Shown piece after piece: positions 3,178 through 20,463 of a DNA stretch of 64,000 nt. Under the pieces are notes generated by a model. That model did no database searches, was not told the origin of the DNA, and saw only the letters and a list, made by a program, of their open reading frames with translations. The translations under genes were made by a program, and so were the position numbers. This DNA comes from Candidatus Aldehydirespirator sp. (lineage in GTDB: Bacteria; Actinomycetota; Acidimicrobiia; Acidimicrobiales; Aldehydirespiratoraceae), in assembly GCA_965220645.1 (NCBI GenBank), contig OZ244836.1, forward strand, positions 660,075 through 724,074, written 5' to 3'. Position 1 is the stretch's first letter, and the number at the start of each line of letters is the position of its first letter.

Positions 3178-3225
3178 CGTCGCAGCACTCCTGGGCCCCG
3201 TGGTGGATCACCCGCATATCGTGAC

Positions 3226-3344
3226 CCGATCAGCCATTCGAAGATCGACCGGCGCGCTGCGGCGCGGTCGGGGTAGCTGTGGCGGTGGACGAGCTCTCGT
3301 TTGAGCGTCGAGAAGAACGCCTCGGCCACGGCATTGTCTGCTGA
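3226..3344 (-). pseudogene. IS3-1 OrfB middle piece carrying the catalytic E
   Basis: SADNAVAEAFFSTLKRELVHRHSYPDRAAARRSIFEWLI. Confidence 0.9.
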
Positions 3345-3397
3345 TTATCCGGCCAATCGCGGTCGGGGGTGAAGCGAGGTGTCGTGGGCCCGGTCGG

Positions 3398-3706
3398 TCA
3401 GATGGCTTTGCGGCGGGGTTGGCGGCGTTCGATGTGGCGGAGCCGTTCTTCTTGGTTTCGGACTCGGTCGGCGAGGGCTTCGAGCCCGGTGCGGAGGTGG
3501 GCGATTTGGGTGGCGAGTCCGGTGAGGGTGTGGGGGTCGTGGCTGTGGCTGCGGTGTTCTTCGACGACGGCTCGGAGCTGCGGGTTGCGGTAGAGGGTGG
3601 TGCGGCTGATGCCGGCGTGGTCGGCGACGGCGGTGAAGGTGATTGCTTGGCCGTTGTGGGCGAGGCGGGCGCAGGCGGCTTCGACGGCTTCGATGTTGGT
3701 GTTCAT
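3398..3706 (-). CDS. TnpC-like (DUF6262-like) HTH/coiled-coil protein, 102 aa
   Basis: MNTNIEAVEAAC...ITFTAVADHAGISRTTLY; ATGA overlap with the upstream recombinase; this is the real tail of the 729-aa track ORF. Confidence 0.8.
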   Translation of the reverse strand: MNTNIEAVEAACARLAHNGQAITFTAVADHAGISRTTLYRNPQLRAVVEEHRSHSHDPHTLTGLATQIAHLRTGLEALADRVRNQEERLRHIERRQPRRKAI

Positions 3707-5673
3707 GCGGTGTCGGCGATGAGTGTGTCGAGGCGGTCGAGGAGGCGTCGGTGCCGGTCGGCTTCGTCGATCCAGCCGCGTGTTTGGGCGTCGGCGATGA
3801 GTGCTTGGGTGTCGACGCGCTGCGCGGCTAGCACGGCAATGGAGGCGGCGTCGGTGCGGAAGCTGGGGCAGTGCTCGCAGATGTTGGCGTAGGGGCAGGC
3901 TCCCTGGGCGGGGGCGCGTAGGCAGTGGCCTCCGGCGAGGCGCGCTTTGATGGCCGGCGCGTCGCGCCAGTCGTCGCCGGAGGTGCAGCCGTTGGCGCGG
4001 CCGTCGTTGGCGGTGACGGGGATCGATGGCCGGCCCGTCGGTGTAGGCATGGCGCCGATGCGGCCTTTGGCGAGGTCGAGGGCGCGTTCGTATTCGGCGC
4101 GGACGGTGGAGTCGAAGAGGTGCGCGTAGCGCAGGCTCATCTCGGCTGAGACGTGGCCGAGGAGGGCCATGAGCGCTTGCAGCGAGACGCCGGCGTTGAC
4201 TAGGGCGGTGGCGTAGGTGTGGCGGAGCTGGTGGGGGGTGACGTGACCGATCCCGGCAGTGTTGGCGCTGCGGGCCAGTTCGGTGCGCACCGCGGTTTGG
4301 GAGAGTCGTCGTCCGTGGTGGGTGAACAGGAACTGGGTCGGCCGGCCGGTGCGGGGGTGTGGCAGCGGTTTGCCGGTCGATCGTGTGGCGGTGATCCGGT
4401 CGATGAGGGCGACGGTCTCGTCGTCGAGGGGGACCATGCGCTCGGTGTCGAGCTTGCCGAGCGGGACCTTGAGCCAGGCGCCGTGGCCGCCGATCTCGTG
4501 GACGCAGTCCAACTCGAGGTCGAGGAGCTCTCCGATGCGCAGCCCGACGGCCCGGGCCAACAGCAGGGCGTCGGCGGCGAGCCGGTAGGTGGAGGCTTCG
4601 AGCGCTTCGGTGAGGCGCCGGTCGGCGTCCACGGGCAGATAGCGGGGCAATGGCCGCGGTTGGCGGGGATGGTCGGACCGGAAGACCAGCTTGCGGGCGG
4701 GGGCGTCTTCCCAGCCCCACTCGGTGATCTCTGCGAGCATGTGGCCCACAGCGCGGATGCGGCGGTCCTGGTCGGCGACGGTGATCGCCTGCCCGGTCTT
4801 CGATGACACTGCGCTCGCGACGGAGTTCAGGTAGGGCTCGATGTGGCGTTGGCGGTCCAGCGCGGCGAGCGACTCGAGTTCGGGGTCGTGCTCGGCGAGG
4901 AACCGGCCGAAGCAGGCGAGGCGGGTGGCGAGGCTCGAGACGGTCTTGGGTCGACAGGTGCCGCGCTTGCGTTCGAGGTAGGCGGCCATGGCGGAGCGCA
5001 GGTTCGGGCGGCAGTCGGCCAGGCGGGCCTCGAAGCTGTCCGGCTGCTGTGGGGGCTCGGGTGGTTGGGCGACGATGTCGAGGTGGAACAGCACCGTGTG
5101 GGCGCACACGAGCGCGGTCCTGTAGTGCCGCCAGCCCTGCCCGGTCGCAGCCTCGCGTGCCCGGCACGCGTCGGCCAGGGCCTCCAGGTCGCCGATGGCC
5201 AACTGCTCCAGTGGGCGTCCGGTCTGGATCAACAGCCGGCCGACCGACTGCGACGCGGCCCGTTTCGCCTGAATCTCGCTGAACCCGACCGCTGCCGCCG
5301 TGTCGCAGAACCGGCCCATGTCGGCCTCGAGCGGCGAGTCGCAGATCTCGCGCCAGAAGCTCGAGAGCTTGCGTGACACCAGCCAGTCCCAGCCCGGCTG
5401 CAGCCACCTGTGGGCCATCAAGAACATCAGCAGCGACATCGTCGAGGGCGCCAGCACCAGCCGGGCGCCGAGGGGTTGGTCGGCCCAGGCCTGCGGGTTG
5501 GGCCAGCGGTCCAGGAACGTCCGGGCCGCCAAGTCCGAGGCCGGGTTCCCTCGGCCGGTGGCGCGCTGGCGGTCCCGCCACGCCCACAGCAGCTGGCCCG
5601 GTGCTGGGACCGGTGACGGTTCAGGTGTTGGCGCGTTGGCGGCGGCGGGCAGCATCGAACTCGGCCTTGACAT
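3703..5673 (-). CDS. Large tyrosine recombinase with Cys4 tail, element B1
   Basis: GLRIGE, LGK, HQLRH, LGH, SLRY; GHCLRAPAQGACPYANICEHC; start uncertain. Confidence 0.9.
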   Translation of the reverse strand: MSRPSSMLPAAANAPTPEPSPVPAPGQLLWAWRDRQRATGRGNPASDLAARTFLDRWPNPQAWADQPLGARLVLAPSTMSLLMFLMAHRWLQPGWDWLVSRKLSSFWREICDSPLEADMGRFCDTAAAVGFSEIQAKRAASQSVGRLLIQTGRPLEQLAIGDLEALADACRAREAATGQGWRHYRTALVCAHTVLFHLDIVAQPPEPPQQPDSFEARLADCRPNLRSAMAAYLERKRGTCRPKTVSSLATRLACFGRFLAEHDPELESLAALDRQRHIEPYLNSVASAVSSKTGQAITVADQDRRIRAVGHMLAEITEWGWEDAPARKLVFRSDHPRQPRPLPRYLPVDADRRLTEALEASTYRLAADALLLARAVGLRIGELLDLELDCVHEIGGHGAWLKVPLGKLDTERMVPLDDETVALIDRITATRSTGKPLPHPRTGRPTQFLFTHHGRRLSQTAVRTELARSANTAGIGHVTPHQLRHTYATALVNAGVSLQALMALLGHVSAEMSLRYAHLFDSTVRAEYERALDLAKGRIGAMPTPTGRPSIPVTANDGRANGCTSGDDWRDAPAIKARLAGGHCLRAPAQGACPYANICEHCPSFRTDAASIAVLAAQRVDTQALIADAQTRGWIDEADRHRRLLDRLDTLIADTA

Positions 5674-6712
5674 GGGTGGGGGCCAGATGGACGTAGCGGG
5701 CGGTGGTGTCGATGTGGGCGTGGCCCAACAGGGCCTGCATCACGGCCAGGTCCACACCGGCCTCGGCCAAAGCGGTGCCGAAGGTGTGGCGCAAGGCGTG
5801 GGGATGCGCGGCCGTGATGCCGGTGATCTCGCGGTGATAGCGGAAGATCCGCCGCAGCCCCGCCGCGGTGAGCGGCTGCCCGCGGGTGGGGCCCTTGGCC
5901 ACGACGAACAGCCTGGCGCTGGTCGTCTCGGGGCGCTCGGCGAGCAGGTAGGTCCCGATCACCCCGGCGACGTCCACGTCGAGGGGGACCCGGCGCTCGG
6001 TGCCGCCCTTGCCCGACACCCGCAGCCATCGGGCGCCGATGTCGGCATCGGCGACGTCGAGGGCCAACACCTCCGACGAGCGCAGCCCGCAGAACACCAT
6101 CAACCCGGCGGCGGCCCGGTCCCGCCACGTGCGCAGGCTCTCCAGCAGCGCCACGACTTCTCGGTGCTCGAGCGTCTTCGGGAGCCGCTTGGCGTCGCGG
6201 ACCCGCAACGGCGAGCGCCGCCGCGGCGCACGCGACACGTGCGCGAGCATCCCGCCGCGCTCACCCGCCGACGCCCGCCTGGCCTCGCGGCCCGCAGGCA
6301 TCGGGTTCGGCGCGTCCGGGTCGCGCATCGACCGGAACGAGAACAACCCCGACACCGCCGCCAAGCGCAAGTTGATCGTGGCCGCAGACAACGTGTCGGT
6401 CCGGCGGCCGTCGAGCCCGACCACGTTCGCACCGCCGGGCCGGCCAGCGACCCGCTCACTGCGGCACGCGGCCAAGAACCGCAACAACACATCCGTCGTG
6501 ACCTCGCCCAGATCCAAGTCCTCGTCGCCGAGCCAGCGGCAGAACGCCAACAGCCCGAACCCATAGGTGCGTATCGTGCGAGGCGAGTAGTTCCGGTCAA
6601 CCAGATACGACAGGTAGTCGTTCACCAACCCGAACCGACCGGCGCCGGCGCCGGCGAGCTGCCAGCCAACCCCAGTCCGCTCAAGGAACAACCCACCATC
6701 CGGCACGGCCAC
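5621..6712 (-). CDS. Small tyrosine recombinase, element B1
   Basis: GLRSSE, GKGG, HALRH, LGH, TARY. Confidence 0.9.
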   Translation of the reverse strand: MAVPDGGLFLERTGVGWQLAGAGAGRFGLVNDYLSYLVDRNYSPRTIRTYGFGLLAFCRWLGDEDLDLGEVTTDVLLRFLAACRSERVAGRPGGANVVGLDGRRTDTLSAATINLRLAAVSGLFSFRSMRDPDAPNPMPAGREARRASAGERGGMLAHVSRAPRRRSPLRVRDAKRLPKTLEHREVVALLESLRTWRDRAAAGLMVFCGLRSSEVLALDVADADIGARWLRVSGKGGTERRVPLDVDVAGVIGTYLLAERPETTSARLFVVAKGPTRGQPLTAAGLRRIFRYHREITGITAAHPHALRHTFGTALAEAGVDLAVMQALLGHAHIDTTARYVHLAPTHVKAEFDAARRRQRANT

Positions 6713-6808
6713 ATATGTAACGCCCAGCGAACCCTAAGGCAAGCATTTCCCAGTACCAACAGCCAATCAGGAAGCAAGCACCAGATCCGATTGGCCGGTT
6801 AACAGGCA

Positions 6809-7489
6809 GGACCCGACCCGGCCGGCTGACTGGTTCATGCCCCATGACCTCACGCTGTTCTTGAACGCCTTGGCCTGGTAGTTGCTGCCGCGATCGGAAT
6901 GGAACACGATGCCTGCGGTGCGGCCCCCGCGGGCCGCGCCAGCCATGTCGAGGGCGTCTTGGGCCAAGCGGGTGTCGATGCGGTCGCTCATCTGGTAGCC
7001 GAGCAGCCGGCGGCTGCCCAAGTCGAGCACGACCGCGAGGTACAGCCAGCCCTCGCCGGTGCGGATGTAGGTGATGTCTGACACCCACGCCCGATCGGGG
7101 GTCCCCGGAGCGAAGTCCCGTCCCAGCAGGTCCGGGAGTGTCACAGCCGTGCGGGCTGGGATGGTGGTGCGCTTGGGCCGCCGGCGGCGGATCCCCGCTA
7201 TCTGGTGGACTCTCATGAGCCGCTCGACGCGTTTGCGGTTCACCACACGCCCTGCGGCGCGCAGCTGCGCGGTCACCCTCGGCGACCCATAAGCGCCACC
7301 CGAGCCGGCATGCGCCCGGCGGATCGCCCCGAGGAGGTCCGCCTCGGCGAGATCACGCTCGCTGGGACCCGCGGCGTGCCTGGCGCGCCAGTCATAGAAC
7401 GCCTGACGGCTCACTCGGGCTGCCTCACAGCACAGCGTGGTCGGGAATCCCTCGGCCCTTCGGGCAGCCACCCACCGGAAACGGGTCAC
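6809..7489 (-). pseudogene. IS3-1 OrfB N-terminal part
   Basis: YGSPRV, WVSDITYI, FHSDRGSNY, ending at SAGRVGS. Confidence 0.9.
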
Positions 7490-7502
7490 TGTCCCAACTC
7501 CC

Positions 7503-7817
7503 TCACCCAAAAGCCGTCGCTCGTTTGAGCAACTCACGCTCCTGGCGCAGCCGAAAGTTCCCCCGGCGCAGCTCGGCCAGCTCGGCCCGCTCGCTGGTCG
7601 TCACTCCCTCGCGCTCGCCGCGGTCGATGCGCGCCTGGCGCACCCAATTGCCCAGGTTCGTCGCCCCGATCCCCAAACTGCGCGCCACCGACGCAACCGA
7701 ACGGCCCTCATCGAGCACCAACGACACCGCATCAGCCTTGAACTCAGCCGTGAACGATCTTCGCGACCGGCCCGGCGGCAACACCGGCCCAGCACGCTGC
7801 CTTTCCATAGTTGACAT
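7503..7817 (-). CDS. IS3-1 OrfA (HTH)
   Basis: RRSFTAEFKADAVSLV...VARSLGI...LGNWV plus leucine-zipper-like tail. Confidence 0.88.
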   Translation of the reverse strand: MSTMERQRAGPVLPPGRSRRSFTAEFKADAVSLVLDEGRSVASVARSLGIGATNLGNWVRQARIDRGEREGVTTSERAELAELRRGNFRLRQERELLKRATAFG

Positions 7818-8063
7818 GGCTACCTCCTAATCGAGGTGACCGGTCAACAGGGGGAGGCACCCCTCGGACAACTCGCCTTGGCCATCGCCGTGATCCTCAC
7901 CGTCAAGCTCTTCAAATGGGCCGACCGATGGAACCCCACGTAGCCGCCTATTTGCGCGCGCTCTTAGCAGAAAACTTCAAAAAGGGTTTTTGTTCTCGAC
8001 TGCCGGGAAGAACGGGTCGTCACCTTCTTTGACCTCAGACCACGCGGCAAGAGCGACGCCACC

Positions 8064-8819
8064 GTGTTCACCGACATGACCCTGAAGGCTCGGCAACGGC
8101 ACCCTGACCTCACCGCTGGCATGCACGGCATCGTCTATGACATGGCGCTGGCATCAGAAGACATAGACCGGCTCCTCGACGGGGGGCTCAACCCCATCTC
8201 CAAAGTGCCCAGAACCTCCAACGGACACCCGGCAGGGGCCAACCTCGGAGACCACACATTCCGACTCGCCTCCATTCCCGGCCAGCAGACCGCTATGCGG
8301 GTCTTGGCCATTGATGGCCCTCCCGTCATCGAAGCCGTGGACTCAAACGGCGTCATCCACTACGTACCCCTCGTGAGGGCACGCACCTATGTGCGCAAAC
8401 ATTCCCACCGCCGCACCTGGTACAGCGATTTCACCGTGCCCGACCACCCGCTGGTGCCTCCCCACCTCGTCGGTGCTACTACCGCCATCCGCCACAGCAG
8501 CACCACACACGAACGCCAGACCAGACCCCACAGGCGACGCACCCGAGCCCTAAGGGTCACCTCCGAGCACGACCCAGACTTTGACAAGATCTACGGCCTC
8601 CGCGAGGACTCCGAGTCCAACATCTCGACCTACAAACGGACACTCCATCACGGCCGCGCCCGCGCCGTGGGGGGCAACAGCCTTCGCCTGGACCTGCTCT
8701 CCTACCAGGGCGTCACCATGATCACCGCTCTCGTCGCGCACCACCGCCGCACCGGGGCCAGCCTCAAGGGTTGGTTCGGCAGCCGCCCACCCCCATACCG
8801 CGGCGACCCGACCGGCTGA
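8064..8819 (+). pseudogene. C-terminal half of a divergent DDE transposase-like protein
   Basis: IVYDMA (second Asp) and YGLREDSESNISTYK resembling the YREK motif; N-terminus missing. Confidence 0.5.
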
Positions 8820-9129
8820 ACGGCAGCCAGCAAGGCAAGCGCCCACCACACGCGGGCGCTCAGCAGCCAACCGGCCAAGAGGGAGCCCCCGCGCTCCCCG
8901 CACACCCCTGCAATAGGCTCACAGCGTGAACATCAACGTCAAAGCAGTCAAACCGAGCATCGCCAACTAATAGTCCACCACATAGTCTTCCAACCCCCGC
9001 CCTCGTGGGACATGCGCGAATTACAAACACCGAGGTCAGAGCCTCGGGCTCTGAGGGGTTTGGAACGGATTTCGCGAAATCCTGGAACGTTTTTGTCGCG
9101 AGCGCGCAAAACCCCAGGTCAGAGGCATG

Positions 9130-9176
9130 ATCCGGTCGCCTGACCAGCCACGACAGGATTTTGGGCATCCACACAG
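9130..9176 (+). mobile_element. Orphan end of an rve-integrase IS
   Basis: GCCTGACCAGCCACGACAGGATTTTGGGCATCCACAG matches the end at ~10637-10672. Confidence 0.6.
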
Positions 9177-9215
9177 CCGCTCGCACGCGTCAGCGGCACC
9201 GGAAGCTGTGATTCC

Positions 9216-9317
9216 ACCCCATCGGGCAGAACACCTGGCCACCACCGGGCAGTTCTGTTGGCCACGAACGGGCAGTTCTACTGTCCGCCACTGGGCAGAT
9301 CCCACTGGCCATTGACA
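9216..9317 (+). mobile_element. IS21-family terminal remnant
   Basis: Four ~23-bp degenerate repeats (GGCCACnnnnGGGCAGTTCT) ending in GGCCATTGACA. Confidence 0.7.
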
Positions 9318-9659
9318 GCATGGGACCTCAACGCAGACGGGCTGTGGCCCACGGTCAAGGCACGGCCCTCGTGGGGATTGGCTATGTGGGACTTGGGAGC
9401 CTGGTGATCTCGGACGCTCCGAAGGCTGCTGCCCCTGTCCGAAAATCTCCAACCAGACACTCTCACGCTCCCGCGTTAGGCATGCCGGGTGTGGGCAGAC
9501 TGAGTTCGGTCAACGCCTGCTCATCCTCTCAGTCAGCGGGGTAAGCAGAGGCCGGCTGGAACGCGATTCGCCGGAACTCGACCGCCGGACCGCGCGGATA
9601 CGTTCCGTTTCGCAGGCAGGGCGAGGTCGCCGCCGTTGAGTGCCGGTCGGTTGATCTAG

Positions 9660-10673: not shown

Positions 10674-10935
10674 CGTCCAGTTCTGGCGAGACCTGAGGGT
10701 GTCTGCGACCGTCTCGCACCCTGAGCCGGCCAGCGCTACGGGCTGAGCCTCAGATGATCCGGCGTCTCGAGCCTGATCCGGTGTCAGCGGTCTTTTGCCT
10801 GTTCAGCAGGTATTTCTTGCAGGGCTGAAGAAAAAGTCTCGCCGATTCCCGGGAATCTTGCCGGTGACAAAATCCTGCAACATTCCATTCCTACCGTGCG
10901 CAGCATCACGAAATTCTCACGAAAGGAGTGGAAGC

Positions 10936-12474
10936 GTGATTGGCAGAATGCTAAAGACGAAAAAGTTCCTGATCGGGTCGGTGCTGGGAGCTGTTCTCGG
11001 CGCCGGGATACTGGTCGGCTGCGCCGACGACCCGAACGAAGGCCGCTCCGGCGGGGAGAGTGCCGGTGAGCACGGCTCCGCCGGCGAGGGCGGCACCGAA
11101 GGCGGCGGCGAGTCCGGCGGCGGAGGCGAGGAGGGCAGCGCAGCAATGCTGGCTCCCGACCAGATCTTCGACGCGGTCCGCGGCGGCGCCCAGCTGGTGA
11201 TGGGCTACGACTCCACCAACAACTCCTTCACGGGCACGGTGGCCAACACCACCAACGGGCCCCTGACCCGAGTCCGCATCGAGGTGCACCTGGACAACGG
11301 GACCGAGCTGGGCCCGACCACTCCGGCGGATCTCGCTCCCGGCGAGGTGATGGCGGTCAACCTGCCCTCGACGCAGGCTTCGTTCACCGGCTGGGTCGCC
11401 CATGCTGAGGTCGGCGGTGGCGAGGGCGGCGGCGAGCACGGCGGCAGCGGCGGCGAGTCCGGTTCTGAGGGTGCCGAGGGCGCTGACGGCGAGTCCGGTT
11501 CTGAGGGTGCCGGCGGCGAGGGCGGCTCAGAGAGCGCCGGCGGCGAGAGCGGCGTCGAACTCAACGAGGCCGCCATGTCAAGCCCGGTCGTGCCGCTGAA
11601 CCAGACCTGGGACGGGACCCTGGGTCCGTTGGCGGTGTCGGCCTGGTACGACCAGGCGACCCAGACGGTGCACTCCACAGTGCAGAACACCAGCTCCCAG
11701 ACCCAGTGCTACGTGCAGGCCGAGCCTCACCTGAAGTCGGGAACGACCACGGTGGGGGAGCTGGGCCCGGACAAGCTGGGCGATCTGGCCCCGGGCCAGC
11801 AGGCGACCACGAGTGTGGCGCTGGCCACTGAGCCGGCGCTGGCAGGAGTGGCCTTCGACGGCTATGTCGTGCACATGGAGGTCTTCGACTGCGCCGGCCC
11901 CGGACCCCAGCCCCACACCGCTGAAGGCGGCGGCGCCGAGGGCGCCGGAGGCGAGGGCCACGGCGCCGGCGGCGAGGGCGGCTCAGAGAGCGGCACCGAA
12001 GGTGCAGAGTCCGGCGGTGGCGGTGAGGAGGGCAGCGGCGCCAACGCCCTGGCGCTGGATGCGACCTTCGACCAGACCCGCAACGGCGCCCGGCTCGTCA
12101 TGGCCTATGACCCGGCCACCAACACCTTCAACGGCACCGTCATCAACACCACCAACAACACCTTGACCCGAGCCCGGGTGGAGGTGCACCTCACCAACGG
12201 CGTCGAGTTGGGCCCGACCACCCCGGTGAACCTGGCCCCGGGCCAGAGCGTGGCCATCAACCTGGACGTCACCCAGGCCTCCTTCACCGGCTGGACGCCC
12301 CACGTCGAGGTCGGCAGCGGCGAGGGCGGCGGCTCCGGCACCGAAGGCGCCGGCGAGCACGGCGGCAGCGGCGGTGAGTCCGGCTCAGAGGGCGGCGGCG
12401 AGTCCGGCTACGACAGCGGCACCGAGGGTGCCGGCGAGCACGGCGGCAGCGGCGGTGAGTCCGGCTCCGGCTAG
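10936..12474 (+). CDS. Lipoprotein with three repeated (FxLYD-like) beta domains and Gly/Glu/His-rich linkers
   Basis: AAGGAG SD before GTG 10936; lipobox ILVGC; domains 1 and 3 clearly paralogous; GGESGSEGAGEHGG repeats. Confidence 0.8.
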   Translation: MIGRMLKTKKFLIGSVLGAVLGAGILVGCADDPNEGRSGGESAGEHGSAGEGGTEGGGESGGGGEEGSAAMLAPDQIFDAVRGGAQLVMGYDSTNNSFTGTVANTTNGPLTRVRIEVHLDNGTELGPTTPADLAPGEVMAVNLPSTQASFTGWVAHAEVGGGEGGGEHGGSGGESGSEGAEGADGESGSEGAGGEGGSESAGGESGVELNEAAMSSPVVPLNQTWDGTLGPLAVSAWYDQATQTVHSTVQNTSSQTQCYVQAEPHLKSGTTTVGELGPDKLGDLAPGQQATTSVALATEPALAGVAFDGYVVHMEVFDCAGPGPQPHTAEGGGAEGAGGEGHGAGGEGGSESGTEGAESGGGGEEGSGANALALDATFDQTRNGARLVMAYDPATNTFNGTVINTTNNTLTRARVEVHLTNGVELGPTTPVNLAPGQSVAINLDVTQASFTGWTPHVEVGSGEGGGSGTEGAGEHGGSGGESGSEGGGESGYDSGTEGAGEHGGSGGESGSG

Positions 12475-12605
12475 AGCCATCGGCACAGGCCGCGGAAGCA
12501 CGGCCTGAATGCGAGTGCGGACAGGAGCGATGCAATTCCCGCCCCTGTCCGCCTCGCGCGGCCCGAGCGGAATATCGAGGGGGATACGAGGGAGATACTC
12601 TGGTC

Positions 12606-13286
12606 ATGGTGGCGATGAGCGGTGAAGTGTTGATCATCGAGGACGACACGAGGATCGCGAACTGGGTCAAGGTGTACTTCGAGCGGGCCGGATACACCGC
12701 GACGGTCGCCCACGACGGCCTGTCCGGCCTGAAGCTGGCCCGTCGCACGAGCCCGGACCTGATAATCCTCGACCTGATGCTGCCCCGCATCGAGGGAGTG
12801 GAGCTGTGCAAGATCCTCCGTCAGAAGTCGGACGTTCCGATAATCATGCTGACGGCCAAGGAGGCCACCGCAGAGCGGATCGTCGGACTCGAGAGCGGCG
12901 CCGACGACTACATCGTCAAGCCCTTCGACCCGGACGAGGTCATCGCCCGGGCCGAGGCGGTGCTCCGCCGGGTCCAGCACAGAGTCCAGAGGGTCCTGAC
13001 CGGCGGCAGCATCACGCTCAACGAGACCACCGGGGTCGTGACCGTCGATGACGAGCCGGTGACGCTGAGCCAGGCGCAGACCGCCCTGCTGTCGACGTTC
13101 ATGCGCCATCCCAACCAGTTGCTCACCCGTGAACAGCTCATCTCGTTGACCTTCGACGACGATTTCGACGGGTTCGACCGGGCCATCGACAGCCAGATCT
13201 CCCGGCTGCGAAAGCAGATCAACCGAGACGGCAGGCAGCCCATCGAGACTGTGTACGGTGGCGGCTACCGGTTCGTGGGGGAGTGA
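12606..13286 (+). CDS. OmpR-family response regulator
   Basis: IEDD, DLIILDLMLP, MLTAK, GADDYIVKPF, winged-helix tail IETVYGGGYRF. Confidence 0.95.
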   Translation: MVAMSGEVLIIEDDTRIANWVKVYFERAGYTATVAHDGLSGLKLARRTSPDLIILDLMLPRIEGVELCKILRQKSDVPIIMLTAKEATAERIVGLESGADDYIVKPFDPDEVIARAEAVLRRVQHRVQRVLTGGSITLNETTGVVTVDDEPVTLSQAQTALLSTFMRHPNQLLTREQLISLTFDDDFDGFDRAIDSQISRLRKQINRDGRQPIETVYGGGYRFVGE

Positions 13287-13289
13287 ACG

Positions 13290-14702
13290 ATGTCGCTGCG
13301 CTGGCGGATCATGGGCTCGACCGTCCTTGTCGTCCTCATCACGGTGCTGGTCAGCATCGGTGTGGGCTACTACGCCACGCAGACCAACCTGGGTGACTTC
13401 GTGGACGAGATCGGCGACGACGAGGCTATCCAGCTGGGCCGGAGCCTGAGCCGCGAGTACACCGCGTCCGGCGGCTGGGACACAGTGGGCAGCTCGCTGT
13501 CAGAGGCCGGATACATCTCCGGCGAGAGTCCAGACGAGGCCGGGCACGAGGGAGGGTCCGAGACCAGCGCGGGGGAGGTCTCGGAGGCGCTCAACCATGA
13601 CCGGGTGAGAATCGTCATCGTCGACGTCGACGGGCGGGTGGTGGCCGACAATCTGTCCGAGCTGGCGTCCGGGACAGACGCACCCGACCTGGAAGGGCGC
13701 CGCGAGACGGTGTTCGACCTGGGCACCAACCAGCCGGTCGGACACGTCTATGTGGACGTGAACCGCGACTTCCTATCGACCGAATCGGACGGGTTTCTCG
13801 ACACGCTGCTCTACCTCACCCTCGTCGGCGGAGCGCTGACGGTCGGCGTCGCCGTGCTGCTGGCCGCCTGGCTGTCGAAGCGGGTCACCGCGCCGGTGAC
13901 CGCCTTGACCGAGGCCACCCAGGCGATCGCGCAGGGGGACACGGCCCGGCTGCCGGTCGCCTCCTCGGACGAGCTGGGAAGGATGAGCGCGGCCTTCAAC
14001 CGGATGACCTCCACCCTGGAGACCCAGCGCGAGCTCCGCAGGCGGCTGATCAACGACGTCTCCCATGAGATCAACACGCCCCTGAGCGTCATACTGCTGG
14101 AGGCGAGAGGACTGCGCGACGGGCTCCAGACCGCGGAGAGCGCCTCCGACCACATCACCCAGGAAGTGGACCGGCTGCGCGGCCTGGTGACCGACCTGGA
14201 CTGGCTCGCCGAGACCGACCATGGGGAGATGAGGCTCAGCCTCCAGGAATGCTCGATACATGAACTGCTCACGGCGGAAGCGAAGCGCTGGCAGCCGCAG
14301 TCCCAGGCCCAGCAGGTGGAGTTGTCGCTGCAGGCGCCCGGCGACCTGCCGCCCATGGATCTCGACCGGATGCGGATGAGCCAGGCACTGGGAAACGTGG
14401 TGGGCAACGCCGTCCATTGCACCGACGCGGGCGGGAGCGTCGTGATCACAGCCGAGCCGGAGGGCAGCGAGACGCTGGCCGTCTCCGTCGTCGACGACGG
14501 GATCGGCATCGACGCCGCCGACCTCCCCCACGTCTTCGACCGCTTCTACCGCACCGACCAGTCCCGCAGCCGCGGGATAGCCGGCACAGGCATGGGACTG
14601 GCCATCACCGAAGCCATAGTCGCAGCCCACGGGGGCACCACCACCGTGACCAGTGACGGGCCCGGGCACGGCGCCGCCGTGACTATCCGCCTTCCCTTGT
14701 GA
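13290..14702 (+). CDS. HAMP-domain sensor histidine kinase
   Basis: Two TM segments, HAMP, SHEINTPL H-box, N/G1/F/G2 boxes. Confidence 0.95.
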   Translation: MSLRWRIMGSTVLVVLITVLVSIGVGYYATQTNLGDFVDEIGDDEAIQLGRSLSREYTASGGWDTVGSSLSEAGYISGESPDEAGHEGGSETSAGEVSEALNHDRVRIVIVDVDGRVVADNLSELASGTDAPDLEGRRETVFDLGTNQPVGHVYVDVNRDFLSTESDGFLDTLLYLTLVGGALTVGVAVLLAAWLSKRVTAPVTALTEATQAIAQGDTARLPVASSDELGRMSAAFNRMTSTLETQRELRRRLINDVSHEINTPLSVILLEARGLRDGLQTAESASDHITQEVDRLRGLVTDLDWLAETDHGEMRLSLQECSIHELLTAEAKRWQPQSQAQQVELSLQAPGDLPPMDLDRMRMSQALGNVVGNAVHCTDAGGSVVITAEPEGSETLAVSVVDDGIGIDAADLPHVFDRFYRTDQSRSRGIAGTGMGLAITEAIVAAHGGTTTVTSDGPGHGAAVTIRLPL

Positions 14703-14768
14703 CCGGTGCCGTGACCGCCGCCCGACGCCACCGGAGAGAGTCGATCTCAGACCCATGAGAGCGTTGCG

Positions 14769-16055
14769 GTGATCGACCCGATGCCGCCGGCCGCGGTCTG
14801 CGTTCTCCCCTGGGACGGGCCCGTTGCCGACACGGTCGAGGCGATCGGTCAGGCCCGGGCGGATTGCGGCGACACGTTCGTGGTGGACAGCGGTGAGGAT
14901 CGCTACCTGTTCCTGTTCTCGGAGGCGGGACTGCACAGCTTCTACACCGTGCCCGAGACGCAGGCCAGCAAGGGCATCGCCGATTGCAGGATGCTGCGCC
15001 GCAAGCTCCCCGACGAGCTGTTCGCGGGGCGCCGCACCCTGCCCCACGAGCTGTTCGGCCGGGTAGCGGTGGCCGGCTACCTCGACGCGCTCGAGGAGGC
15101 GATCTCACTGCAGCTCGCAGAGCTGAGCCCCGGCTGCGAGATCGAAGTGTTCGACTTCTCGCGGCGGCTCGGGCACCGGCTGGGCTTGGCGAGCTGGGCC
15201 GGTCGGGAGGTCCTGCGATCAGCCCGGTTCGACGAGCTGGTGGCGGCGCTGGACGCGCTCGACGGGGCCGAAGCGTTCGTGTCGCCGGAGCGGATGCGTG
15301 AGGTGGCTCTCACCGACAAGGCCGCCGAACGGCAGGCGATGGCCCGAGCCGAGGAGATCCTGGCCGAGTCGATCGGCGCGCGGGTCGAGCCCGGTGACGA
15401 CCTGCTGGGCACCACCATCCGGCGATGGGACGACACCGCGGCAGCCGACAGAATGACCGGCATCGCCCGTGACGTGATTCTGGTGCACATCGGGTCGATG
15501 TCGAACCTGTTCGCGGCGCTGGGCTGGTCGCTGGTGCACCTGGTGCAGCATCCCGACGTGCTGGCGCGGCTGCGCGGCGGATCGGATCGGGGCGCCGACG
15601 CCGAGCTGGCGTCGCGCTGCGTGCTGGAGTCGATACGCATCGCCCAGCGCTCCATCATGCTGCGCACAGTGCTGGAACCGGCAGTCATCGACGACGGCTC
15701 GCAGGCCTACCACGTGTCACAGGGGGCCACGCTGGCGACGTTCCTGCCGCTCACCAATCTCGCCGGCGCGCCCGGACTCGGCTCCTACGACCCCGACCGC
15801 TGGCAGGGCCGCCACCTCATCTCGCCCGCCGGACTGCCGGCGGAGGCCATCACGACCTTCGGCCACGGCCCGCACACCTGCCCGGCCCGGCCGTTCTCGG
15901 TGACGGCGATGGTGCGAGTCATCGAACGACTCTTCGGGTCCTGTGACCTGCAGCGCCGATTCGACGATGCCGTGCCGCGGCCCGGTCAGATCGGCGGTGT
16001 CGCTCGCGCCGCCGCGCCCTGCAACGTCGTGGTCACACCGCGCGCACCCGCCTGA
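14769..16055 (+). CDS. Cytochrome P450 (atypical I-helix)
   Basis: ESIR (ExxR), YDPDRW, FGHGPHTCPAR heme motif. Confidence 0.9.
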   Translation: MIDPMPPAAVCVLPWDGPVADTVEAIGQARADCGDTFVVDSGEDRYLFLFSEAGLHSFYTVPETQASKGIADCRMLRRKLPDELFAGRRTLPHELFGRVAVAGYLDALEEAISLQLAELSPGCEIEVFDFSRRLGHRLGLASWAGREVLRSARFDELVAALDALDGAEAFVSPERMREVALTDKAAERQAMARAEEILAESIGARVEPGDDLLGTTIRRWDDTAAADRMTGIARDVILVHIGSMSNLFAALGWSLVHLVQHPDVLARLRGGSDRGADAELASRCVLESIRIAQRSIMLRTVLEPAVIDDGSQAYHVSQGATLATFLPLTNLAGAPGLGSYDPDRWQGRHLISPAGLPAEAITTFGHGPHTCPARPFSVTAMVRVIERLFGSCDLQRRFDDAVPRPGQIGGVARAAAPCNVVVTPRAPA

Positions 16056-16096
16056 GCGGGCGAGCCTGCCCCGAGACGAAGGCCGACTCGGTGGCC

Positions 16097-16203
16097 GGTC
16101 GCGTCGCTGGGGGGCGCCGGACTCGGTCGGCTGGTCGCGTCGCTGGGGGGTGCCGGACTCGGTCGGCTGGTCGCGTCGCTGGGGGGTGCCGGACCCGGTC
16201 GGT
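16097..16203. repeat. Three tandem 36-bp repeats
   Basis: GGTCGCGTCGCTGGGGGGTGCCGGACTCGGTCGGCT at 16097, 16133, 16169; no spacers. Confidence 0.9.
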
Positions 16204-16720
16204 TGCGCCTGTCGATTCGCGGCCACGATCACGAACTCGATCGGCGCAGCGCCACATACTCTGCTACAAGAATGTTCTCGTGTTGGTTATTGTTTGTTGG
16301 TTTGACCCACCATCGGTTGCCTTTGGTGTCGTGAGCGAGAAACACCCCTGATTTCCCGAAGGTTTTTTCAGGGCCTGTTCGGGCGAGTTGAGGCACGCTG
16401 GGGATGGAAGCGGGTCGGCTTCCGGCTATGCGTCCACTCCAGTTGGCCCTGGGCGGTGAACTAGCCACGGGACCCAGGGGCCGTTACGGCGTGTGTCAGC
16501 GGCCCTGCTGACTCATGCAAAGTTCTGTTGCATCGATGATCGAGCTTGATCGGCAAGAGATAATGCATCATCTTGAATGATGTGCTGGACTCAGATGATG
16601 TTTGCAGGCTTCGCCAGCAGTCGAACGAACAGTTACCGGGTTGGCGCTGGGAACAGGCGCACATTGGAGTCTCAAAAGGGTGGTGTGCCCTGTGTTTCGC
16701 GCGGTCGGGTTGTTTGAATC

Positions 16721-16924
16721 TCAGGCTGTGTTGGCGTGGCGGATCTCGTATTCGACGGGTGTGAGCATGCCGAGTGATGAGTGCCGCCGTTGCCGGTTGT
16801 GGAAGATCTCAAGGTACTCGAATATGGCGTTGGATAGTTCCAGGCGGGTTCTCCAGCGCCTTCGGTTGAGCAGCTCGACTTGCATGCGGGCCCAGAACGA
16901 CTCGATGACGGCGTTGTCGAAGCA
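16721..16924 (-). pseudogene. IS3-2 OrfB C-terminal piece
   Basis: CFDNAVIESFWARMQVELLNRRRW...IFEYLEIFHNRQRRHSSLGMLTP. Confidence 0.9.
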
Positions 16925-16977
16925 TTATCCGGCCAATCGCGGTCGGGGGTGAAGCGAGGTGTCGTGGGCCCGGTCGG

Positions 16978-17286
16978 TCAGATGGCTTTGCGGCGGGGTT
17001 GGCGGCGTTCGATGTGGCGGAGCCGTTCTTCTTGGTTTCGGACTCGGTCGGCGAGGGCTTCGAGCCCGGTGCGGAGGTGGGCGATTTGGGTGGCGAGTCC
17101 GGTGAGGGTGTGGGGGTCGTGGCTGTGGCTGCGGTGTTCTTCGACGACGGCTCGGAGCTGCGGGTTGCGGTAGAGGGTGGTGCGGCTGATGCCGGCGTGG
17201 TCGGCGACGGCGGTGAAGGTGATTGCTTGGCCGTTGTGGGCGAGGCGGGCGCAGGCGGCTTCGACGGCTTCGATGTTGGTGTTCAT
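16978..17286 (-). CDS. TnpC-like protein, element B2
   Basis: Same as 3398-3706. Confidence 0.8.
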   Translation of the reverse strand: MNTNIEAVEAACARLAHNGQAITFTAVADHAGISRTTLYRNPQLRAVVEEHRSHSHDPHTLTGLATQIAHLRTGLEALADRVRNQEERLRHIERRQPRRKAI

Positions 17287-19253
17287 GCGGTGTCGGCGAT
17301 GAGTGTGTCGAGGCGGTCGAGGAGGCGTCGGTGCCGGTCGGCTTCGTCGATCCAGCCGCGTGTTTGGGCGTCGGCGATGAGTGCTTGGGTGTCGACGCGC
17401 TGCGCGGCTAGCACGGCAATGGAGGCGGCGTCGGTGCGGAAGCTGGGGCAGTGCTCGCAGATGTTGGCGTAGGGGCAGGCTCCCTGGGCGGGGGCGCGTA
17501 GGCAGTGGCCTCCGGCGAGGCGCGCTTTGATGGCCGGCGCGTCGCGCCAGTCGTCGCCGGAGGTGCAGCCGTTGGCGCGGCCGTCGTTGGCGGTGACGGG
17601 GATCGATGGCCGGCCCGTCGGTGTAGGCATGGCGCCGATGCGGCCTTTGGCGAGGTCGAGGGCGCGTTCGTATTCGGCGCGGACGGTGGAGTCGAAGAGG
17701 TGCGCGTAGCGCAGGCTCATCTCGGCTGAGACGTGGCCGAGGAGGGCCATGAGCGCTTGCAGCGAGACGCCGGCGTTGACTAGGGCGGTGGCGTAGGTGT
17801 GGCGGAGCTGGTGGGGGGTGACGTGACCGATCCCGGCAGTGTTGGCGCTGCGGGCCAGTTCGGTGCGCACCGCGGTTTGGGAGAGTCGTCGTCCGTGGTG
17901 GGTGAACAGGAACTGGGTCGGCCGGCCGGTGCGGGGGTGTGGCAGCGGTTTGCCGGTCGATCGTGTGGCGGTGATCCGGTCGATGAGGGCGACGGTCTCG
18001 TCGTCGAGGGGGACCATGCGCTCGGTGTCGAGCTTGCCGAGCGGGACCTTGAGCCAGGCGCCGTGGCCGCCGATCTCGTGGACGCAGTCCAACTCGAGGT
18101 CGAGGAGCTCTCCGATGCGCAGCCCGACGGCCCGGGCCAACAGCAGGGCGTCGGCGGCGAGCCGGTAGGTGGAGGCTTCGAGCGCTTCGGTGAGGCGCCG
18201 GTCGGCGTCCACGGGCAGATAGCGGGGCAATGGCCGCGGTTGGCGGGGATGGTCGGACCGGAAGACCAGCTTGCGGGCGGGGGCGTCTTCCCAGCCCCAC
18301 TCGGTGATCTCTGCGAGCATGTGGCCCACAGCGCGGATGCGGCGGTCCTGGTCGGCGACGGTGATCGCCTGCCCGGTCTTCGATGACACTGCGCTCGCGA
18401 CGGAGTTCAGGTAGGGCTCGATGTGGCGTTGGCGGTCCAGCGCGGCGAGCGACTCGAGTTCGGGGTCGTGCTCGGCGAGGAACCGGCCGAAGCAGGCGAG
18501 GCGGGTGGCGAGGCTCGAGACGGTCTTGGGTCGACAGGTGCCGCGCTTGCGTTCGAGGTAGGCGGCCATGGCGGAGCGCAGGTTCGGGCGGCAGTCGGCC
18601 AGGCGGGCCTCGAAGCTGTCCGGCTGCTGTGGGGGCTCGGGTGGTTGGGCGACGATGTCGAGGTGGAACAGCACCGTGTGGGCGCACACGAGCGCGGTCC
18701 TGTAGTGCCGCCAGCCCTGCCCGGTCGCAGCCTCGCGTGCCCGGCACGCGTCGGCCAGGGCCTCCAGGTCGCCGATGGCCAACTGCTCCAGTGGGCGTCC
18801 GGTCTGGATCAACAGCCGGCCGACCGACTGCGACGCGGCCCGTTTCGCCTGAATCTCGCTGAACCCGACCGCTGCCGCCGTGTCGCAGAACCGGCCCATG
18901 TCGGCCTCGAGCGGCGAGTCGCAGATCTCGCGCCAGAAGCTCGAGAGCTTGCGTGACACCAGCCAGTCCCAGCCCGGCTGCAGCCACCTGTGGGCCATCA
19001 AGAACATCAGCAGCGACATCGTCGAGGGCGCCAGCACCAGCCGGGCGCCGAGGGGTTGGTCGGCCCAGGCCTGCGGGTTGGGCCAGCGGTCCAGGAACGT
19101 CCGGGCCGCCAAGTCCGAGGCCGGGTTCCCTCGGCCGGTGGCGCGCTGGCGGTCCCGCCACGCCCACAGCAGCTGGCCCGGTGCTGGGACCGGTGACGGT
19201 TCAGGTGTTGGCGCGTTGGCGGCGGCGGGCAGCATCGAACTCGGCCTTGACAT
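17283..19253 (-). CDS. Large tyrosine recombinase, element B2
   Basis: Same as 3703-5673. Confidence 0.9.
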   Translation of the reverse strand: MSRPSSMLPAAANAPTPEPSPVPAPGQLLWAWRDRQRATGRGNPASDLAARTFLDRWPNPQAWADQPLGARLVLAPSTMSLLMFLMAHRWLQPGWDWLVSRKLSSFWREICDSPLEADMGRFCDTAAAVGFSEIQAKRAASQSVGRLLIQTGRPLEQLAIGDLEALADACRAREAATGQGWRHYRTALVCAHTVLFHLDIVAQPPEPPQQPDSFEARLADCRPNLRSAMAAYLERKRGTCRPKTVSSLATRLACFGRFLAEHDPELESLAALDRQRHIEPYLNSVASAVSSKTGQAITVADQDRRIRAVGHMLAEITEWGWEDAPARKLVFRSDHPRQPRPLPRYLPVDADRRLTEALEASTYRLAADALLLARAVGLRIGELLDLELDCVHEIGGHGAWLKVPLGKLDTERMVPLDDETVALIDRITATRSTGKPLPHPRTGRPTQFLFTHHGRRLSQTAVRTELARSANTAGIGHVTPHQLRHTYATALVNAGVSLQALMALLGHVSAEMSLRYAHLFDSTVRAEYERALDLAKGRIGAMPTPTGRPSIPVTANDGRANGCTSGDDWRDAPAIKARLAGGHCLRAPAQGACPYANICEHCPSFRTDAASIAVLAAQRVDTQALIADAQTRGWIDEADRHRRLLDRLDTLIADTA

Positions 19254-20292
19254 GGGTGGGGGCCAGATGGACGTAGCGGGCGGTGGTGTCGATGTGGGCG
19301 TGGCCCAACAGGGCCTGCATCACGGCCAGGTCCACACCGGCCTCGGCCAAAGCGGTGCCGAAGGTGTGGCGCAAGGCGTGGGGATGCGCGGCCGTGATGC
19401 CGGTGATCTCGCGGTGATAGCGGAAGATCCGCCGCAGCCCCGCCGCGGTGAGCGGCTGCCCGCGGGTGGGGCCCTTGGCCACGACGAACAGCCTGGCGCT
19501 GGTCGTCTCGGGGCGCTCGGCGAGCAGGTAGGTCCCGATCACCCCGGCGACGTCCACGTCGAGGGGGACCCGGCGCTCGGTGCCGCCCTTGCCCGACACC
19601 CGCAGCCATCGGGCGCCGATGTCGGCATCGGCGACGTCGAGGGCCAACACCTCCGACGAGCGCAGCCCGCAGAACACCATCAACCCGGCGGCGGCCCGGT
19701 CCCGCCACGTGCGCAGGCTCTCCAGCAGCGCCACGACTTCTCGGTGCTCGAGCGTCTTCGGGAGCCGCTTGGCGTCGCGGACCCGCAACGGCGAGCGCCG
19801 CCGCGGCGCACGCGACACGTGCGCGAGCATCCCGCCGCGCTCACCCGCCGACGCCCGCCTGGCCTCGCGGCCCGCAGGCATCGGGTTCGGCGCGTCCGGG
19901 TCGCGCATCGACCGGAACGAGAACAACCCCGACACCGCCGCCAAGCGCAAGTTGATCGTGGCCGCAGACAACGTGTCGGTCCGGCGGCCGTCGAGCCCGA
20001 CCACGTTCGCACCGCCGGGCCGGCCAGCGACCCGCTCACTGCGGCACGCGGCCAAGAACCGCAACAACACATCCGTCGTGACCTCGCCCAGATCCAAGTC
20101 CTCGTCGCCGAGCCAGCGGCAGAACGCCAACAGCCCGAACCCATAGGTGCGTATCGTGCGAGGCGAGTAGTTCCGGTCAACCAGATACGACAGGTAGTCG
20201 TTCACCAACCCGAACCGACCGGCGCCGGCGCCGGCGAGCTGCCAGCCAACCCCAGTCCGCTCAAGGAACAACCCACCATCCGGCACGGCCAC
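19201..20292 (-). CDS. Small tyrosine recombinase, element B2
   Basis: Same as 5621-6712. Confidence 0.9.
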   Translation of the reverse strand: MAVPDGGLFLERTGVGWQLAGAGAGRFGLVNDYLSYLVDRNYSPRTIRTYGFGLLAFCRWLGDEDLDLGEVTTDVLLRFLAACRSERVAGRPGGANVVGLDGRRTDTLSAATINLRLAAVSGLFSFRSMRDPDAPNPMPAGREARRASAGERGGMLAHVSRAPRRRSPLRVRDAKRLPKTLEHREVVALLESLRTWRDRAAAGLMVFCGLRSSEVLALDVADADIGARWLRVSGKGGTERRVPLDVDVAGVIGTYLLAERPETTSARLFVVAKGPTRGQPLTAAGLRRIFRYHREITGITAAHPHALRHTFGTALAEAGVDLAVMQALLGHAHIDTTARYVHLAPTHVKAEFDAARRRQRANT

Positions 20293-20463
20293 ATATGTAA
20301 CGCCCAGCGAACCCTAAGGCAAGCATTTCCCAGTACCAACAGCCAATCAGGAAGCAAGCACCAGATCCGATTGGCCGGTTAACAGGCAGTCCCCGATCGA
20401 TCCCACCGACACCGCCAGCCCGGCGTCTTTGGCGCGTTGGGTGAACGCCCAGGAGGTGAATTG

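Follow-up and report, generated by a model that had tools for sequence, protein, structure and literature searches.

The stretch analyzed here, referred to below as the window, spans 64,000 nucleotides (positions 660075 to 724074 of contig OZ244836.1) of the genome of an actinobacterium, Candidatus Aldehydirespirator sp. (3.59 Mb, 68% G+C, two contigs), and contains two copies of a small transposon, element B, each lying inside the transposase gene of a different insertion sequence (IS) of the IS3 family. The copies are 3,464 bp long each and, by self-BLAST and direct base comparison, 100% identical; the raw self-BLAST alignment was longer (3314 to 6816, 99.7% identity) only through the resemblance of the two target sites. 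Neither blastn with the element nor tblastn with its three proteins detected a third copy in the source genome. The features of element B and of its two hosts, IS3-1 and IS3-2, are as follows (window coordinates):

3345-6808, minus strand: element B copy 1, inside IS3-1; limits taken from the comparison with three empty IS3-1 copies, with an ambiguity of one nucleotide (T)
16925-20388, minus strand: element B copy 2, inside IS3-2; 100% identical to copy 1
5621-6712 (copy 1) and 19201-20292 (copy 2), minus strand: tnpA, encoding a XerC/D-like tyrosine recombinase of 363 amino acids
3703-5673 (copy 1) and 17283-19253 (copy 2), minus strand: tnpB, encoding a long tyrosine recombinase of 656 amino acids
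3398-3706 (copy 1) and 16978-17286 (copy 2), minus strand: tnpC, encoding a DUF6262 protein of 102 amino acids
6787-6808, minus strand: tnpA-proximal end of copy 1, consisting of the hexamer TGCCTG (6803-6808) and a 16-bp inverted repeat, TTAACCGGCCAATCGG (6787-6802)
20367-20388, minus strand: tnpA-proximal end of copy 2
3345-3360 (copy 1) and 16925-16940 (copy 2), minus strand: tnpC-proximal inverted repeat, CCGATTGGCCGGATAA
156-7861, minus strand: IS3-1, native length 1,301 bp, interrupted by element U (284-3225; described below) and by element B copy 1
7503-7817 and 6767-7537: orfA and the N-terminal part of orfB, respectively, of IS3-1
16681-22852, minus strand: IS3-2, with 46-nucleotide terminal inverted repeats, interrupted by element B copy 2 and by an IS30-like element; orfA at 22478-22819

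The three genes of element B overlap, with the start of tnpB located upstream of the tnpA stop codon and the ATG of tnpC overlapping the stop codon of tnpB (ATGA), and no cargo genes were found. In Pfam, TnpA matches Phage_integrase (2.8e-34, covering the whole catalytic domain) and Phage_int_SAM_1; TnpB, which has an N-terminal extension and a C-terminal cluster of four cysteines, matches Phage_integrase (7e-27); and TnpC matches DUF6262 (5e-8, 33.5 bits, with a cut-off of 29). Read in gene sense, the element runs TGCCTG + TTAACCGGCCAATCGG ... CCGATTGGCCGGATAA, its ends forming a 16-bp near-perfect inverted repeat beyond which, at the tnpA end only, lies the additional hexamer TGCCTG.

Both hosts have the attributes of the IS3 family, namely, an orfA product with HTH_Tnp_1, an orfB product with the rve DDE domain, and terminal inverted repeats. 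They differ from each other in their terminal sequences (GGCGCTTCCCCCCGTTGACC.. in IS3-1 versus TGGTGTGCCC.. in IS3-2), their OrfB proteins share 39 to 40% amino acid identity, and the DNA flanking the two element B copies, compared without gaps, is identical at 34/74 and 76/200 positions (46% and 38%). The target sequences at the four junctions are the following:

3330-3344, minus strand: right side of target 1, the native hexamer TCAGCA (3339-3344) followed by GACAATGCC (3330-3338), the Asp-Asn-Ala codons
6809-6832, minus strand: left arm of target 1, ...GTCGGGTCC, codons G-R-V-G-S
16910-16924, minus strand: right side of target 2, the native hexamer TGCTTC (16919-16924) followed by GACAACGCC (16910-16918)
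20389-20412, minus strand: left arm of target 2, ...ATCGGGGAC, codons G-S-I-G-D

In gene sense, the codons at the junctions are GTC GGG TCC / B / TCA GCA GAC AAT GCC GTG for copy 1 and ATC GGG GAC / B / TGC TTC GAC AAC GCC GTC for copy 2 or, with the ends of the element written out, ...GTCGGGTCC / TGCCTG-TTAACCGGCCAATCGG ... CCGATTGGCCGGATAA / TCAGCA-GACAATGCCGTG... and ...ATCGGGGAC / same element / TGCTTC-GACAACGCCGTC.... In both cases, the insertion point precedes the GAC-AAY-GCC codons (Asp-Asn-Ala) by exactly 6 bp and falls on the last position of the Pfam rve domain (profile position 102 of 102), just before the D-N-A-x-x-E codons; element B is oriented in the same direction as the interrupted gene. 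The glutamate of D-N-A-x-x-E is the third catalytic residue of DDE transposases; since the insertion separates this stretch from the rest of OrfB, the host elements are inactivated, and occupied IS3 copies cannot make an intact transposase. Movement of the IS3-1::B composite in trans is nevertheless conceivable, because its terminal repeats are preserved and the genome also contains three intact IS3-1 copies.

Those three uninterrupted IS3-1 copies, each with a 3-bp flanking duplication, all contain the empty site ...GGGTCGGGTCC TCAGCA GACAATGCC..., and the comparison with them defines the insertion as a gain of 3,464 bp in which no target base was duplicated or lost, the sole ambiguity being the one T mentioned above. 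No intact copy of IS3-2 was found in the source genome, and the empty state of this second target was instead provided by relatives with 92 to 93% identity in two other genomes of the same genus, which read ...ATCGGGGAC TGCTTC GATAAC... (L091) and ...GTCGGGGAC TGCTTC GATACT... (L090). For a third host IS, that of a related element at locus L005, a search of its own genome with the upstream flank yielded no empty site, the flank itself being rearranged. In the window, IS3-1 (153-155 versus 7862-7864) and IS3-2 (16678-16680 versus 22853-22855) have no matching 3-bp flanking duplications, which suggests later rearrangement between IS copies.

An earlier note on this stretch had reconstructed the two targets as encoding GSSADNAV and GDCFDNAV, and the three empty IS3-1 copies match the first of these exactly, while the second is supported by L090 and L091. 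The note's proposal that element B had hit the same codon position in two divergent IS3 transposases, 6 bp before the codons for D-N-A, was confirmed and extends to 68/70 related elements (see below). It had also argued, from the different inverted repeats and proteins, that no segmental duplication was involved, a view upheld by the approximately 40% identity of the host proteins and by the existence of empty sites. Recent movement, which it had read from identical translations, agrees with 100% identity over 3,464 bp, and the comparison that it had suggested, of IS3 copies with and without element B, revealed, for IS3-1, a clean insertion without duplication.

Element B is a cargo-less member of an actinobacterial branch of the Tn554 family. 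Our Tn554 reference (L082) was plasmid record OL539428.1, found by tblastn of a plasmid collection, in which genes annotated "Tn554 family transposase A/B" are followed by ant(9)-Ia and erm(A); the record carries an Escherichia coli label, which is unexpected for Tn554. By BLASTP, TnpA is 26% identical to Tn554 TnpA over nearly its full length (E value, 4e-32), TnpB is 26% identical to Tn554 TnpB over residues 245 to 653, including the cysteine-rich C-terminal stretch (3e-37), and TnpC matches Tn554 TnpC with an E value of 2e-6. The genes are arranged in the order tnpA-tnpB-tnpC on the same strand, as in Tn554, and encode proteins of 363, 656, and 102 amino acids (361, 630, and 125 amino acids in Tn554). 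Residues R379, H481, R484, H507, Y516, C584, C593, C599, and C602 of TnpB are invariant among 22 relatives, and the HALRHT and YVHL motifs of TnpA align with Tn554 TnpA; going by what is established for this fold, we take the conserved residues of both proteins to fill the catalytic R-H-R-Y roles. Thus, operon order, homology of all three proteins, the R-H-R-Y set, insertion without target duplication, and site- and orientation-specific insertion are shared with the Tn554 family, while the radC att554 target and the carriage of the donor's left-flank 6 bp to the new right junction are not. NCBIfam contains no Tn554-specific model, and all matches there were to generic Xer or integrase models, below their cut-offs; DUF6262 is, according to a table in PMC11947258, NCBI's name for the TnpC of Tn6188.

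The N-terminal 225 residues of TnpB were predicted to fold with a pLDDT of 87, and residues ~114 to 212 resemble the core-binding domain of Xer, integron, and lambda integrases (Z scores of 5.3 to 7.8, a range that, as the tool itself warns, can be nonspecific for helical domains); 9 of the 12 top matches were such domains. As a lead from the model, TnpB may carry an extra DNA-binding module ahead of the canonical core-binding and catalytic domains. In the full-length model, residues 486 to 607 were of low confidence, and Foldseek returned only generic matches: Xer, Tn1549 Int, lambda Int, and Cre.

A TnpB scan of one genome per species yielded 381 relatives, of which the best 79 loci, with TnpB identities of 58 to 94%, were kept. 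These derive from Acidimicrobiia metagenome-assembled genomes, Mycobacteriales, Nocardia, Gordonia, Rhodococcus, Nonomuraea, Arthrobacter, Kribbella, Nocardioides, and others. Terminal repeats were located by pattern, and right junctions with at least 24 nucleotides of flank were considered assessable, as was the case for 70 of the 76 found. Directly after the repeat, 68 of these 70 read xx-D-N-x-x-x-E in frame, whereas among 1,333,758 six-frame windows of related loci the same pattern (xxDNxxxE) turned up 94 times (7e-5); chance as the cause of the shared junction position is therefore excluded. On the other side, 68 left junctions were found, and 55 of the 60 that could be assessed read S-x-[G/S]-x4 directly before the element. 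The remaining five comprise two IS3 sites with a 1-nucleotide or 4-nucleotide junction variant (L003 and L012) and three sites that are not IS3 (L033, L049, and L076).

Tblastn with intact IS3-1 OrfB placed residues up to ~241 to 243 just upstream of tnpA and residues from ~241 to 245 just downstream of tnpC, locus after locus, and every IS3 flank piece found in this way beside an element was on the same strand as that element. The elements on the published plasmids pBD2 and pMSPYR101 occupy the same target site, the former having the same ends as element B and 64% TnpB identity to it. Moreover, the targets are independent of one another: 58/59 left arms and 68/69 right arms were unique, the upstream 150-nucleotide flanks fell into separate clusters at 90% identity in 53/53 cases, and the downstream 50-amino-acid peptides had a median pairwise identity of 26%. 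Over their last 1,500 nucleotides, 13 pairs of elements shared 97% identity or more, and in 12 of these the adjacent 150-nucleotide flanks were only 53 to 83% identical. Five of the pairs consist of 100%-identical elements within one genome (four genomes in all; sets L004/L005/L013, L007/L009, L027/L034, and L043/L044) that sit in different IS3 hosts.

On the basis of the natural targets, the recognition pattern could be reevaluated. The earlier note had derived TCGGGnnC-N6-GACAAYGCCGT with a free central hexamer from the two sites in the window. The hexamer is indeed free, with 38 different sequences among the 70 right junctions, and the GAYAAY of the right arm (+7 to +12) is invariant (68/68), followed by G in 56/68 and C in 62/68 cases. 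The left arm, in contrast, turned out to be looser than proposed (t-c-G-G-n-n-n-c), with GG at -6/-5 in 52/58 targets, a second GG at -15/-14, and TC at -21/-20. At the protein level, the target consists of codons for S-[MIV]-G-x-x-G-x, two free codons, and D-N-A-x-x-E. As for copies at other positions, which the note had named as contrary evidence, none was found in the source genome, but two of the 70 relatives (L033 and L049) are located at non-IS3 sites.

In our view, site- and orientation-specific targeting of IS3 transposase genes by the Tn554-like element B is the correct reading of these data, with a probability of roughly 0.9. Several observations weigh against it. The three intact IS3-1 copies, each with a perfect target, stand unoccupied in the same genome. 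L033 and L049 lie in non-IS3 DNA, and the left flank of L076 is not IS3 either; either the specificity is strong without being absolute or these loci have been rearranged. A donor-derived 6-bp footprint is present at neither junction, unlike in published Tn554. The conserved positions fall on the first two bases of the codons in S-[MIV]-G-x-x-G-x / x-x / D-N-A, so that the bases read by the recombinases are inseparable, in these data, from codon conservation. Furthermore, no movement was observed: the Logan contigs of four of the 23 public sequencing runs listed (X18, X20, X1, and X2) contained neither a circle junction nor a contig spanning the stretch. Finally, an otherwise empty IS3-2-like site, L092 (around position 1513, minus strand), contains GGATAA, the last 6 nucleotides of element B, which gives an in-frame stop codon; this could be an excision scar or the product of a deletion at a microhomology.

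With regard to L033 and L049, both flanks are non-IS3, and these might be secondary sites; the target hexamer of L033, TGCCCT, resembles the element's own TGCCTA. In run X18, two joints skip the element (16833 to 20440 and 16921 to 20435), each in one contig and with shorter sides of 25 and 30 nucleotides; together with loose ends at 16921 and 16924, these have the appearance of unoccupied IS3-2-like sites belonging to related strains or copies, and they are indistinguishable from excision.

The shared position might, alternatively, be a matter of descent, if element B had entered an ancestral IS3 only once and the IS3::B composite had then diverged as a unit. The constancy of position and orientation in all IS3 hosts is just what a single insertion would give. 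Against it, the two copies in the window are 100% identical in hosts whose OrfB proteins are only 39 to 40% identical, empty sites occur in near-identical IS copies, and 12/13 pairs of closely related elements have the dissimilar flanks described above. Since 100%-identical elements sit in divergent IS3 hosts, we consider co-divergence of an old composite to be ruled out for practical purposes, and we assign this explanation a negligible probability. The same observation, in combination with the low identity of the flanks, similarly speaks decisively against homologous recombination or gene conversion, by which element B would be copied from one IS3 to another via flanking homology and without any site-specific integration. 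IS copies do recombine, as the chimeric or rearranged flanks at L057 and L076 illustrate, and the missing flanking duplications of IS3-1 and IS3-2 in the window would fit such events; for this reason we rate recombination as a trace more probable than common descent, but still as very improbable, given that the flanks in the window (46% and 38% ungapped identity) are far below what such exchange needs, that 53/53 upstream flanks are distinct at 90%, and that the junction is exact to the base in all cases.

A third scenario explains the pattern by survivorship, with an element of low specificity that inserts widely and persists only inside dispensable IS genes. These are neutral landing places, and the window itself is a nest of mobile elements. 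While selection may favor IS genes as a class, it could not favor a single nucleotide position and a single orientation in 68/70 cases, among hosts with a median peptide identity of 26%, and we regard this scenario as no more credible than the ancient composite. Site-specific targeting by the element's own recombinases is the reading we retain.

How the exchange takes place is less certain. Two inverted repeats around a 6-bp spacer form the standard core site of Xer- or Cre-type recombinases. Across element B and its relatives, the six inner bases of one repeat change together with those of the other (TTGACC/GGTCAA, TTATCC/GGATAA, and TTAACC/GGTTAA), whereas the tnpA-side hexamer is stable within lineages, being TGCCTG in 31, TCCCTC in 14, TGCCTA in 9, and TGCCCC in 7 of 67 cases; an element-type hexamer was present at every one of the 67 left junctions where the hexamer was complete. 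Because the hexamer is lineage-stable and the repeats covary, neither the hexamer nor the inner six bases of the repeat is the scar of a previous site. We had considered TGCCTG as a 6-bp coupling sequence brought along from an earlier IS3 site, but rejected this idea, as the hexamer is constant within a lineage whatever the target and is absent from the empty sites.

In the model that we prefer, the element would pass through a circle in which the right repeat, TGCCTG, and the left repeat are joined in that order, so that the circle junction would itself constitute a core site, with two inverted arms of 13 to 16 bp around a 6-bp spacer. A staggered exchange would then take place around the circle's spacer and, in the target, around the free hexamer, which lies between the left arm and the GAYAAYGC arm. 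Homology between spacers would not be needed, since target hexamers are unrelated to the element's own hexamer, and the outcome would always be one-sided, the element's hexamer staying beside tnpA and the target's hexamer ending up beside tnpC. The idea that a single 6-bp unit is involved is supported by element A, another Tn554-like element of the window (see below), which is found in both orientations around one target hexamer. We consider this model probable, although clearly less so than the targeting itself, as a description of the exact crossover.

A different crossover, for the same element and the same target, is possible but about half as probable in our estimation: an exchange of the type described for Tn554 and for the elements known as SEs, taking place within the 6 bp on the left side of the insertion point, where GGnGAC of the target would face GGATAA of the element and the first strands could be exchanged with the help of the 2 bp of homology provided by the conserved GG. 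Of 58 targets, 52 have GG at -6/-5, and the right ends of the elements all start with GG or, in two cases, AG; at L092, the sole candidate footprint, GGATAA replaces GGGGAC. In addition, the published behavior of Tn554 and SEs puts the target's 6 bp next to tnpA, and in both groups a copy of 6 bp from the left flank at the donor site appears at the right junction after insertion (PMC10214605). On the other hand, GGATAA lies within the inverted repeat and covaries with its partner, while TGCCTG is what separates the two repeats as the canonical spacer. Scans for excision scars found none inside IS3 genes. When 401 genomes from the same order were scanned for TCGGWTAA-N6-GAYAAYGC (TCGGWTAANNNNNNGAYAAYGC), one genome matched, outside any IS3 gene, and reversed-pattern controls gave 0 matches. 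In a local scan of the genome and all loci, 1 of 73 matches to GG[AT][TC]AA-N6-GAYAAY lacked a preceding element repeat, and it was not in an IS3 gene. The sequence at L092 can also be explained by a deletion across a CGG microhomology.

Element B shares with Tn554, Tn558, Tn559, Tn5406, Tn6188, and Tn6674 the tnpA-tnpB-tnpC arrangement, similar protein sizes, and the lack of a target duplication. As far as described in PMC3788773, the Tn554 group also resembles it in inserting, with fixed site and orientation, into a motif-coding stretch of a gene across divergent hosts, with Firmicute Tn554-like transposons using one conserved radC site even where RadC identity is down to 45%. In L082 (2040-2100), Tn554 is located directly after the ..LAHNHPSGN.. 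codons of the UPF0758/radC gene; since the insertion follows the HNHPSGN codons, the archetype, too, cuts its target gene at a conserved motif. Element B differs from the group in its target (an IS3 transposase gene instead of radC), in the absence of cargo, and in a protein identity of only 20 to 26%. Moreover, the description of Tn6188 in part of the same paper (PMC3788773) is of an element without flanking inverted repeats, whereas element B has 16-bp near-perfect ones around a 6-bp spacer. Its place is among the actinobacterial tnpAB(C) elements of Van Houdt et al. 2012 (PMC3414803), among whose listed carriers is pBD2; identical multiple copies per genome are reported there for these elements, and the main text, as far as available, leaves the attachment site open and contains the term "IS3" 0 times.

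SEs, as characterized in parts of PMC10214605, resemble element B in combining one ordinary and one long tyrosine recombinase with a TnpC-like helper, in target specificity, in a 6-bp crossover unit, and in a biased outcome, and one SE insertion into insJ of an IS3 is reported. They differ in having four core genes, a gammaproteobacterial host range, and cargo, whereas element B has three genes and a stable hexamer. With three genes, element B falls outside the definition of SE and GInt elements, which calls for four core genes, including the noncatalytic Tfp/GinC. RIT elements are comparable in length (~3.5 kb), in encoding several tyrosine recombinases, and in their terminal inverted repeats, and one RIT type is listed in PMC3414803, in the portion available, as lying in the transposase gene of a Tn6049-like transposon. 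They have three recombinases and no DUF6262 protein, in contrast to the two recombinases plus DUF6262 of element B. Like element B, Tn7 recognizes, through TnsD at attTn7, a conserved coding sequence that affords a safe, universal landing site. Unlike element B, it employs DDE chemistry, targets a host gene, and inserts downstream of glmS without disrupting it.

Hence, the Tn554 family, radC targeting across divergent hosts (PMC3788773), and the actinobacterial relatives (PMC3414803) are already known. In a full-text literature search, from which subscription journals and supplements were largely absent, so that an earlier description is possible, we found no account of Tn554-like elements targeting IS3 or IS256 transposase genes. 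The 2023 SE paper, in the sections available, mentions no hosts of Tn554-related elements other than Staphylococcus and Enterococcus and describes the transposition route of the Tn554 family as still unresolved (PMC10214605). While the family is known for a single site, radC in Firmicutes, a large actinobacterial branch has as its attachment site the transposase gene of another mobile element, interrupted in the codons that precede the third catalytic residue. This is a clear, sequence-precise case of a transposon parasitizing a transposon, and since each insertion kills one IS3 copy, effects on IS dynamics are predicted. IS3 genes might offer a safe and portable landing site, because they are multicopy, dispensable to the host, and often plasmid-borne.

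The finding also explains a pattern that recurs in the annotation of actinobacterial genomes and plasmids, where pairs of "integrases" are bordered by "truncated IS3 or IS256 transposases"; in the genome paper on Arthrobacter aurescens TC1 (PMC1713258), elements of this kind are listed together within a single genomic island. Approximately 70 natural targets, covarying ends, and one TnpC-less lineage that occurs in both orientations amount to a data set on how TnpA, TnpB, and TnpC read and cut DNA. Integrases that appear to need no spacer homology and that leave no duplication are of practical interest as well.

All five Tn554-like elements of the genome lie within the window. Besides the two copies of element B, these are the following:

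25028-28158 and, inverted, 43716-46846: element A, two 100%-identical copies encoding TnpA and TnpB, without TnpC
284-3225: element U, 2,942 bp, encoding recombinases of 345 and 610 amino acids, without TnpC; inside the same IS3-1 copy as element B copy 1

The two copies of element A each split an IS256-family transposase gene at the codons R-C-x-V-H-F / I-R-N; the two genes are 84% identical. The copies are in opposite orientations around the same target hexamer, TCCGCA, and in both the element's own hexamer, TCTCCG, is located beside tnpA and the target hexamer at the other end. Relatives of element A abut QRCxxHxxRN-type codons (L100, L101, and L111, with 59 to 63% identity, as well as L106 and L102) or the IS256 "LRTTN" motif (L104). 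The two orientations of element A, which lacks TnpC, would fit a tie between TnpC and orientation, but four B-type elements without a detectable TnpC (L047, L061, L065, and L072) all have the usual orientation, and such a tie is only a lead. Element U sits between the FEWLIG and YNTHRLH codons of IS3-1, and its ends, GTCACG+ATATGCGGGTGATC ... GATCACCCGCATAA, consist of a hexamer and inverted repeats, like those of element B. Among its relatives with a recognizable right end, one of four (L120, 63% TnpB identity) is located directly before YNPRRRHS codons, and three are elsewhere.

The targets seen are IS3 xxDNAxxE for element B, IS3 YNxxRxH for element U, and IS256 QRCxVHFxRN for element A. 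We are slightly inclined to believe that the actinobacterial Tn554-like elements form a guild parasitizing transposons, each lineage specializing in a different conserved, catalysis-linked stretch of a transposase. If so, these elements would disable their host IS and at the same time ride on IS and plasmids as vehicles, and they may act as a brake on IS expansion. With their tolerance of any 6-bp target spacer, they would, in that case, amount to a collection of integrases, diversified by nature, that act in a fixed orientation and leave no footprint.

The nest of mobile elements extends over the first 53 kb of the window. The second element interrupting IS3-2 is located upstream of element B copy 2:

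20464-21920 (approximate limits): IS30-like element, with HTH_38 and a weak rve match; 39-nucleotide inverted repeats at 20464-20502 and 21882-21920

Further IS genes (22889-23947, 28784-29884, 41593-42693, 47322-48359, and 51599-52984) belong to three IS110-family elements, one IS481-like element, and one ISL3 element, and two of the IS110 copies constitute a 97.8%-identical inverted pair (28636-29919 and 41555-42841). Finally, an open reading frame of 559 codons (10795-12474) contains degenerate repeats rich in glycine, glutamate, and serine, with internal repeats ~900 nucleotides apart, and gave only a subthreshold match to the Ig-like FixG_C domain; it adjoins a response regulator/histidine kinase pair (12606-14702).

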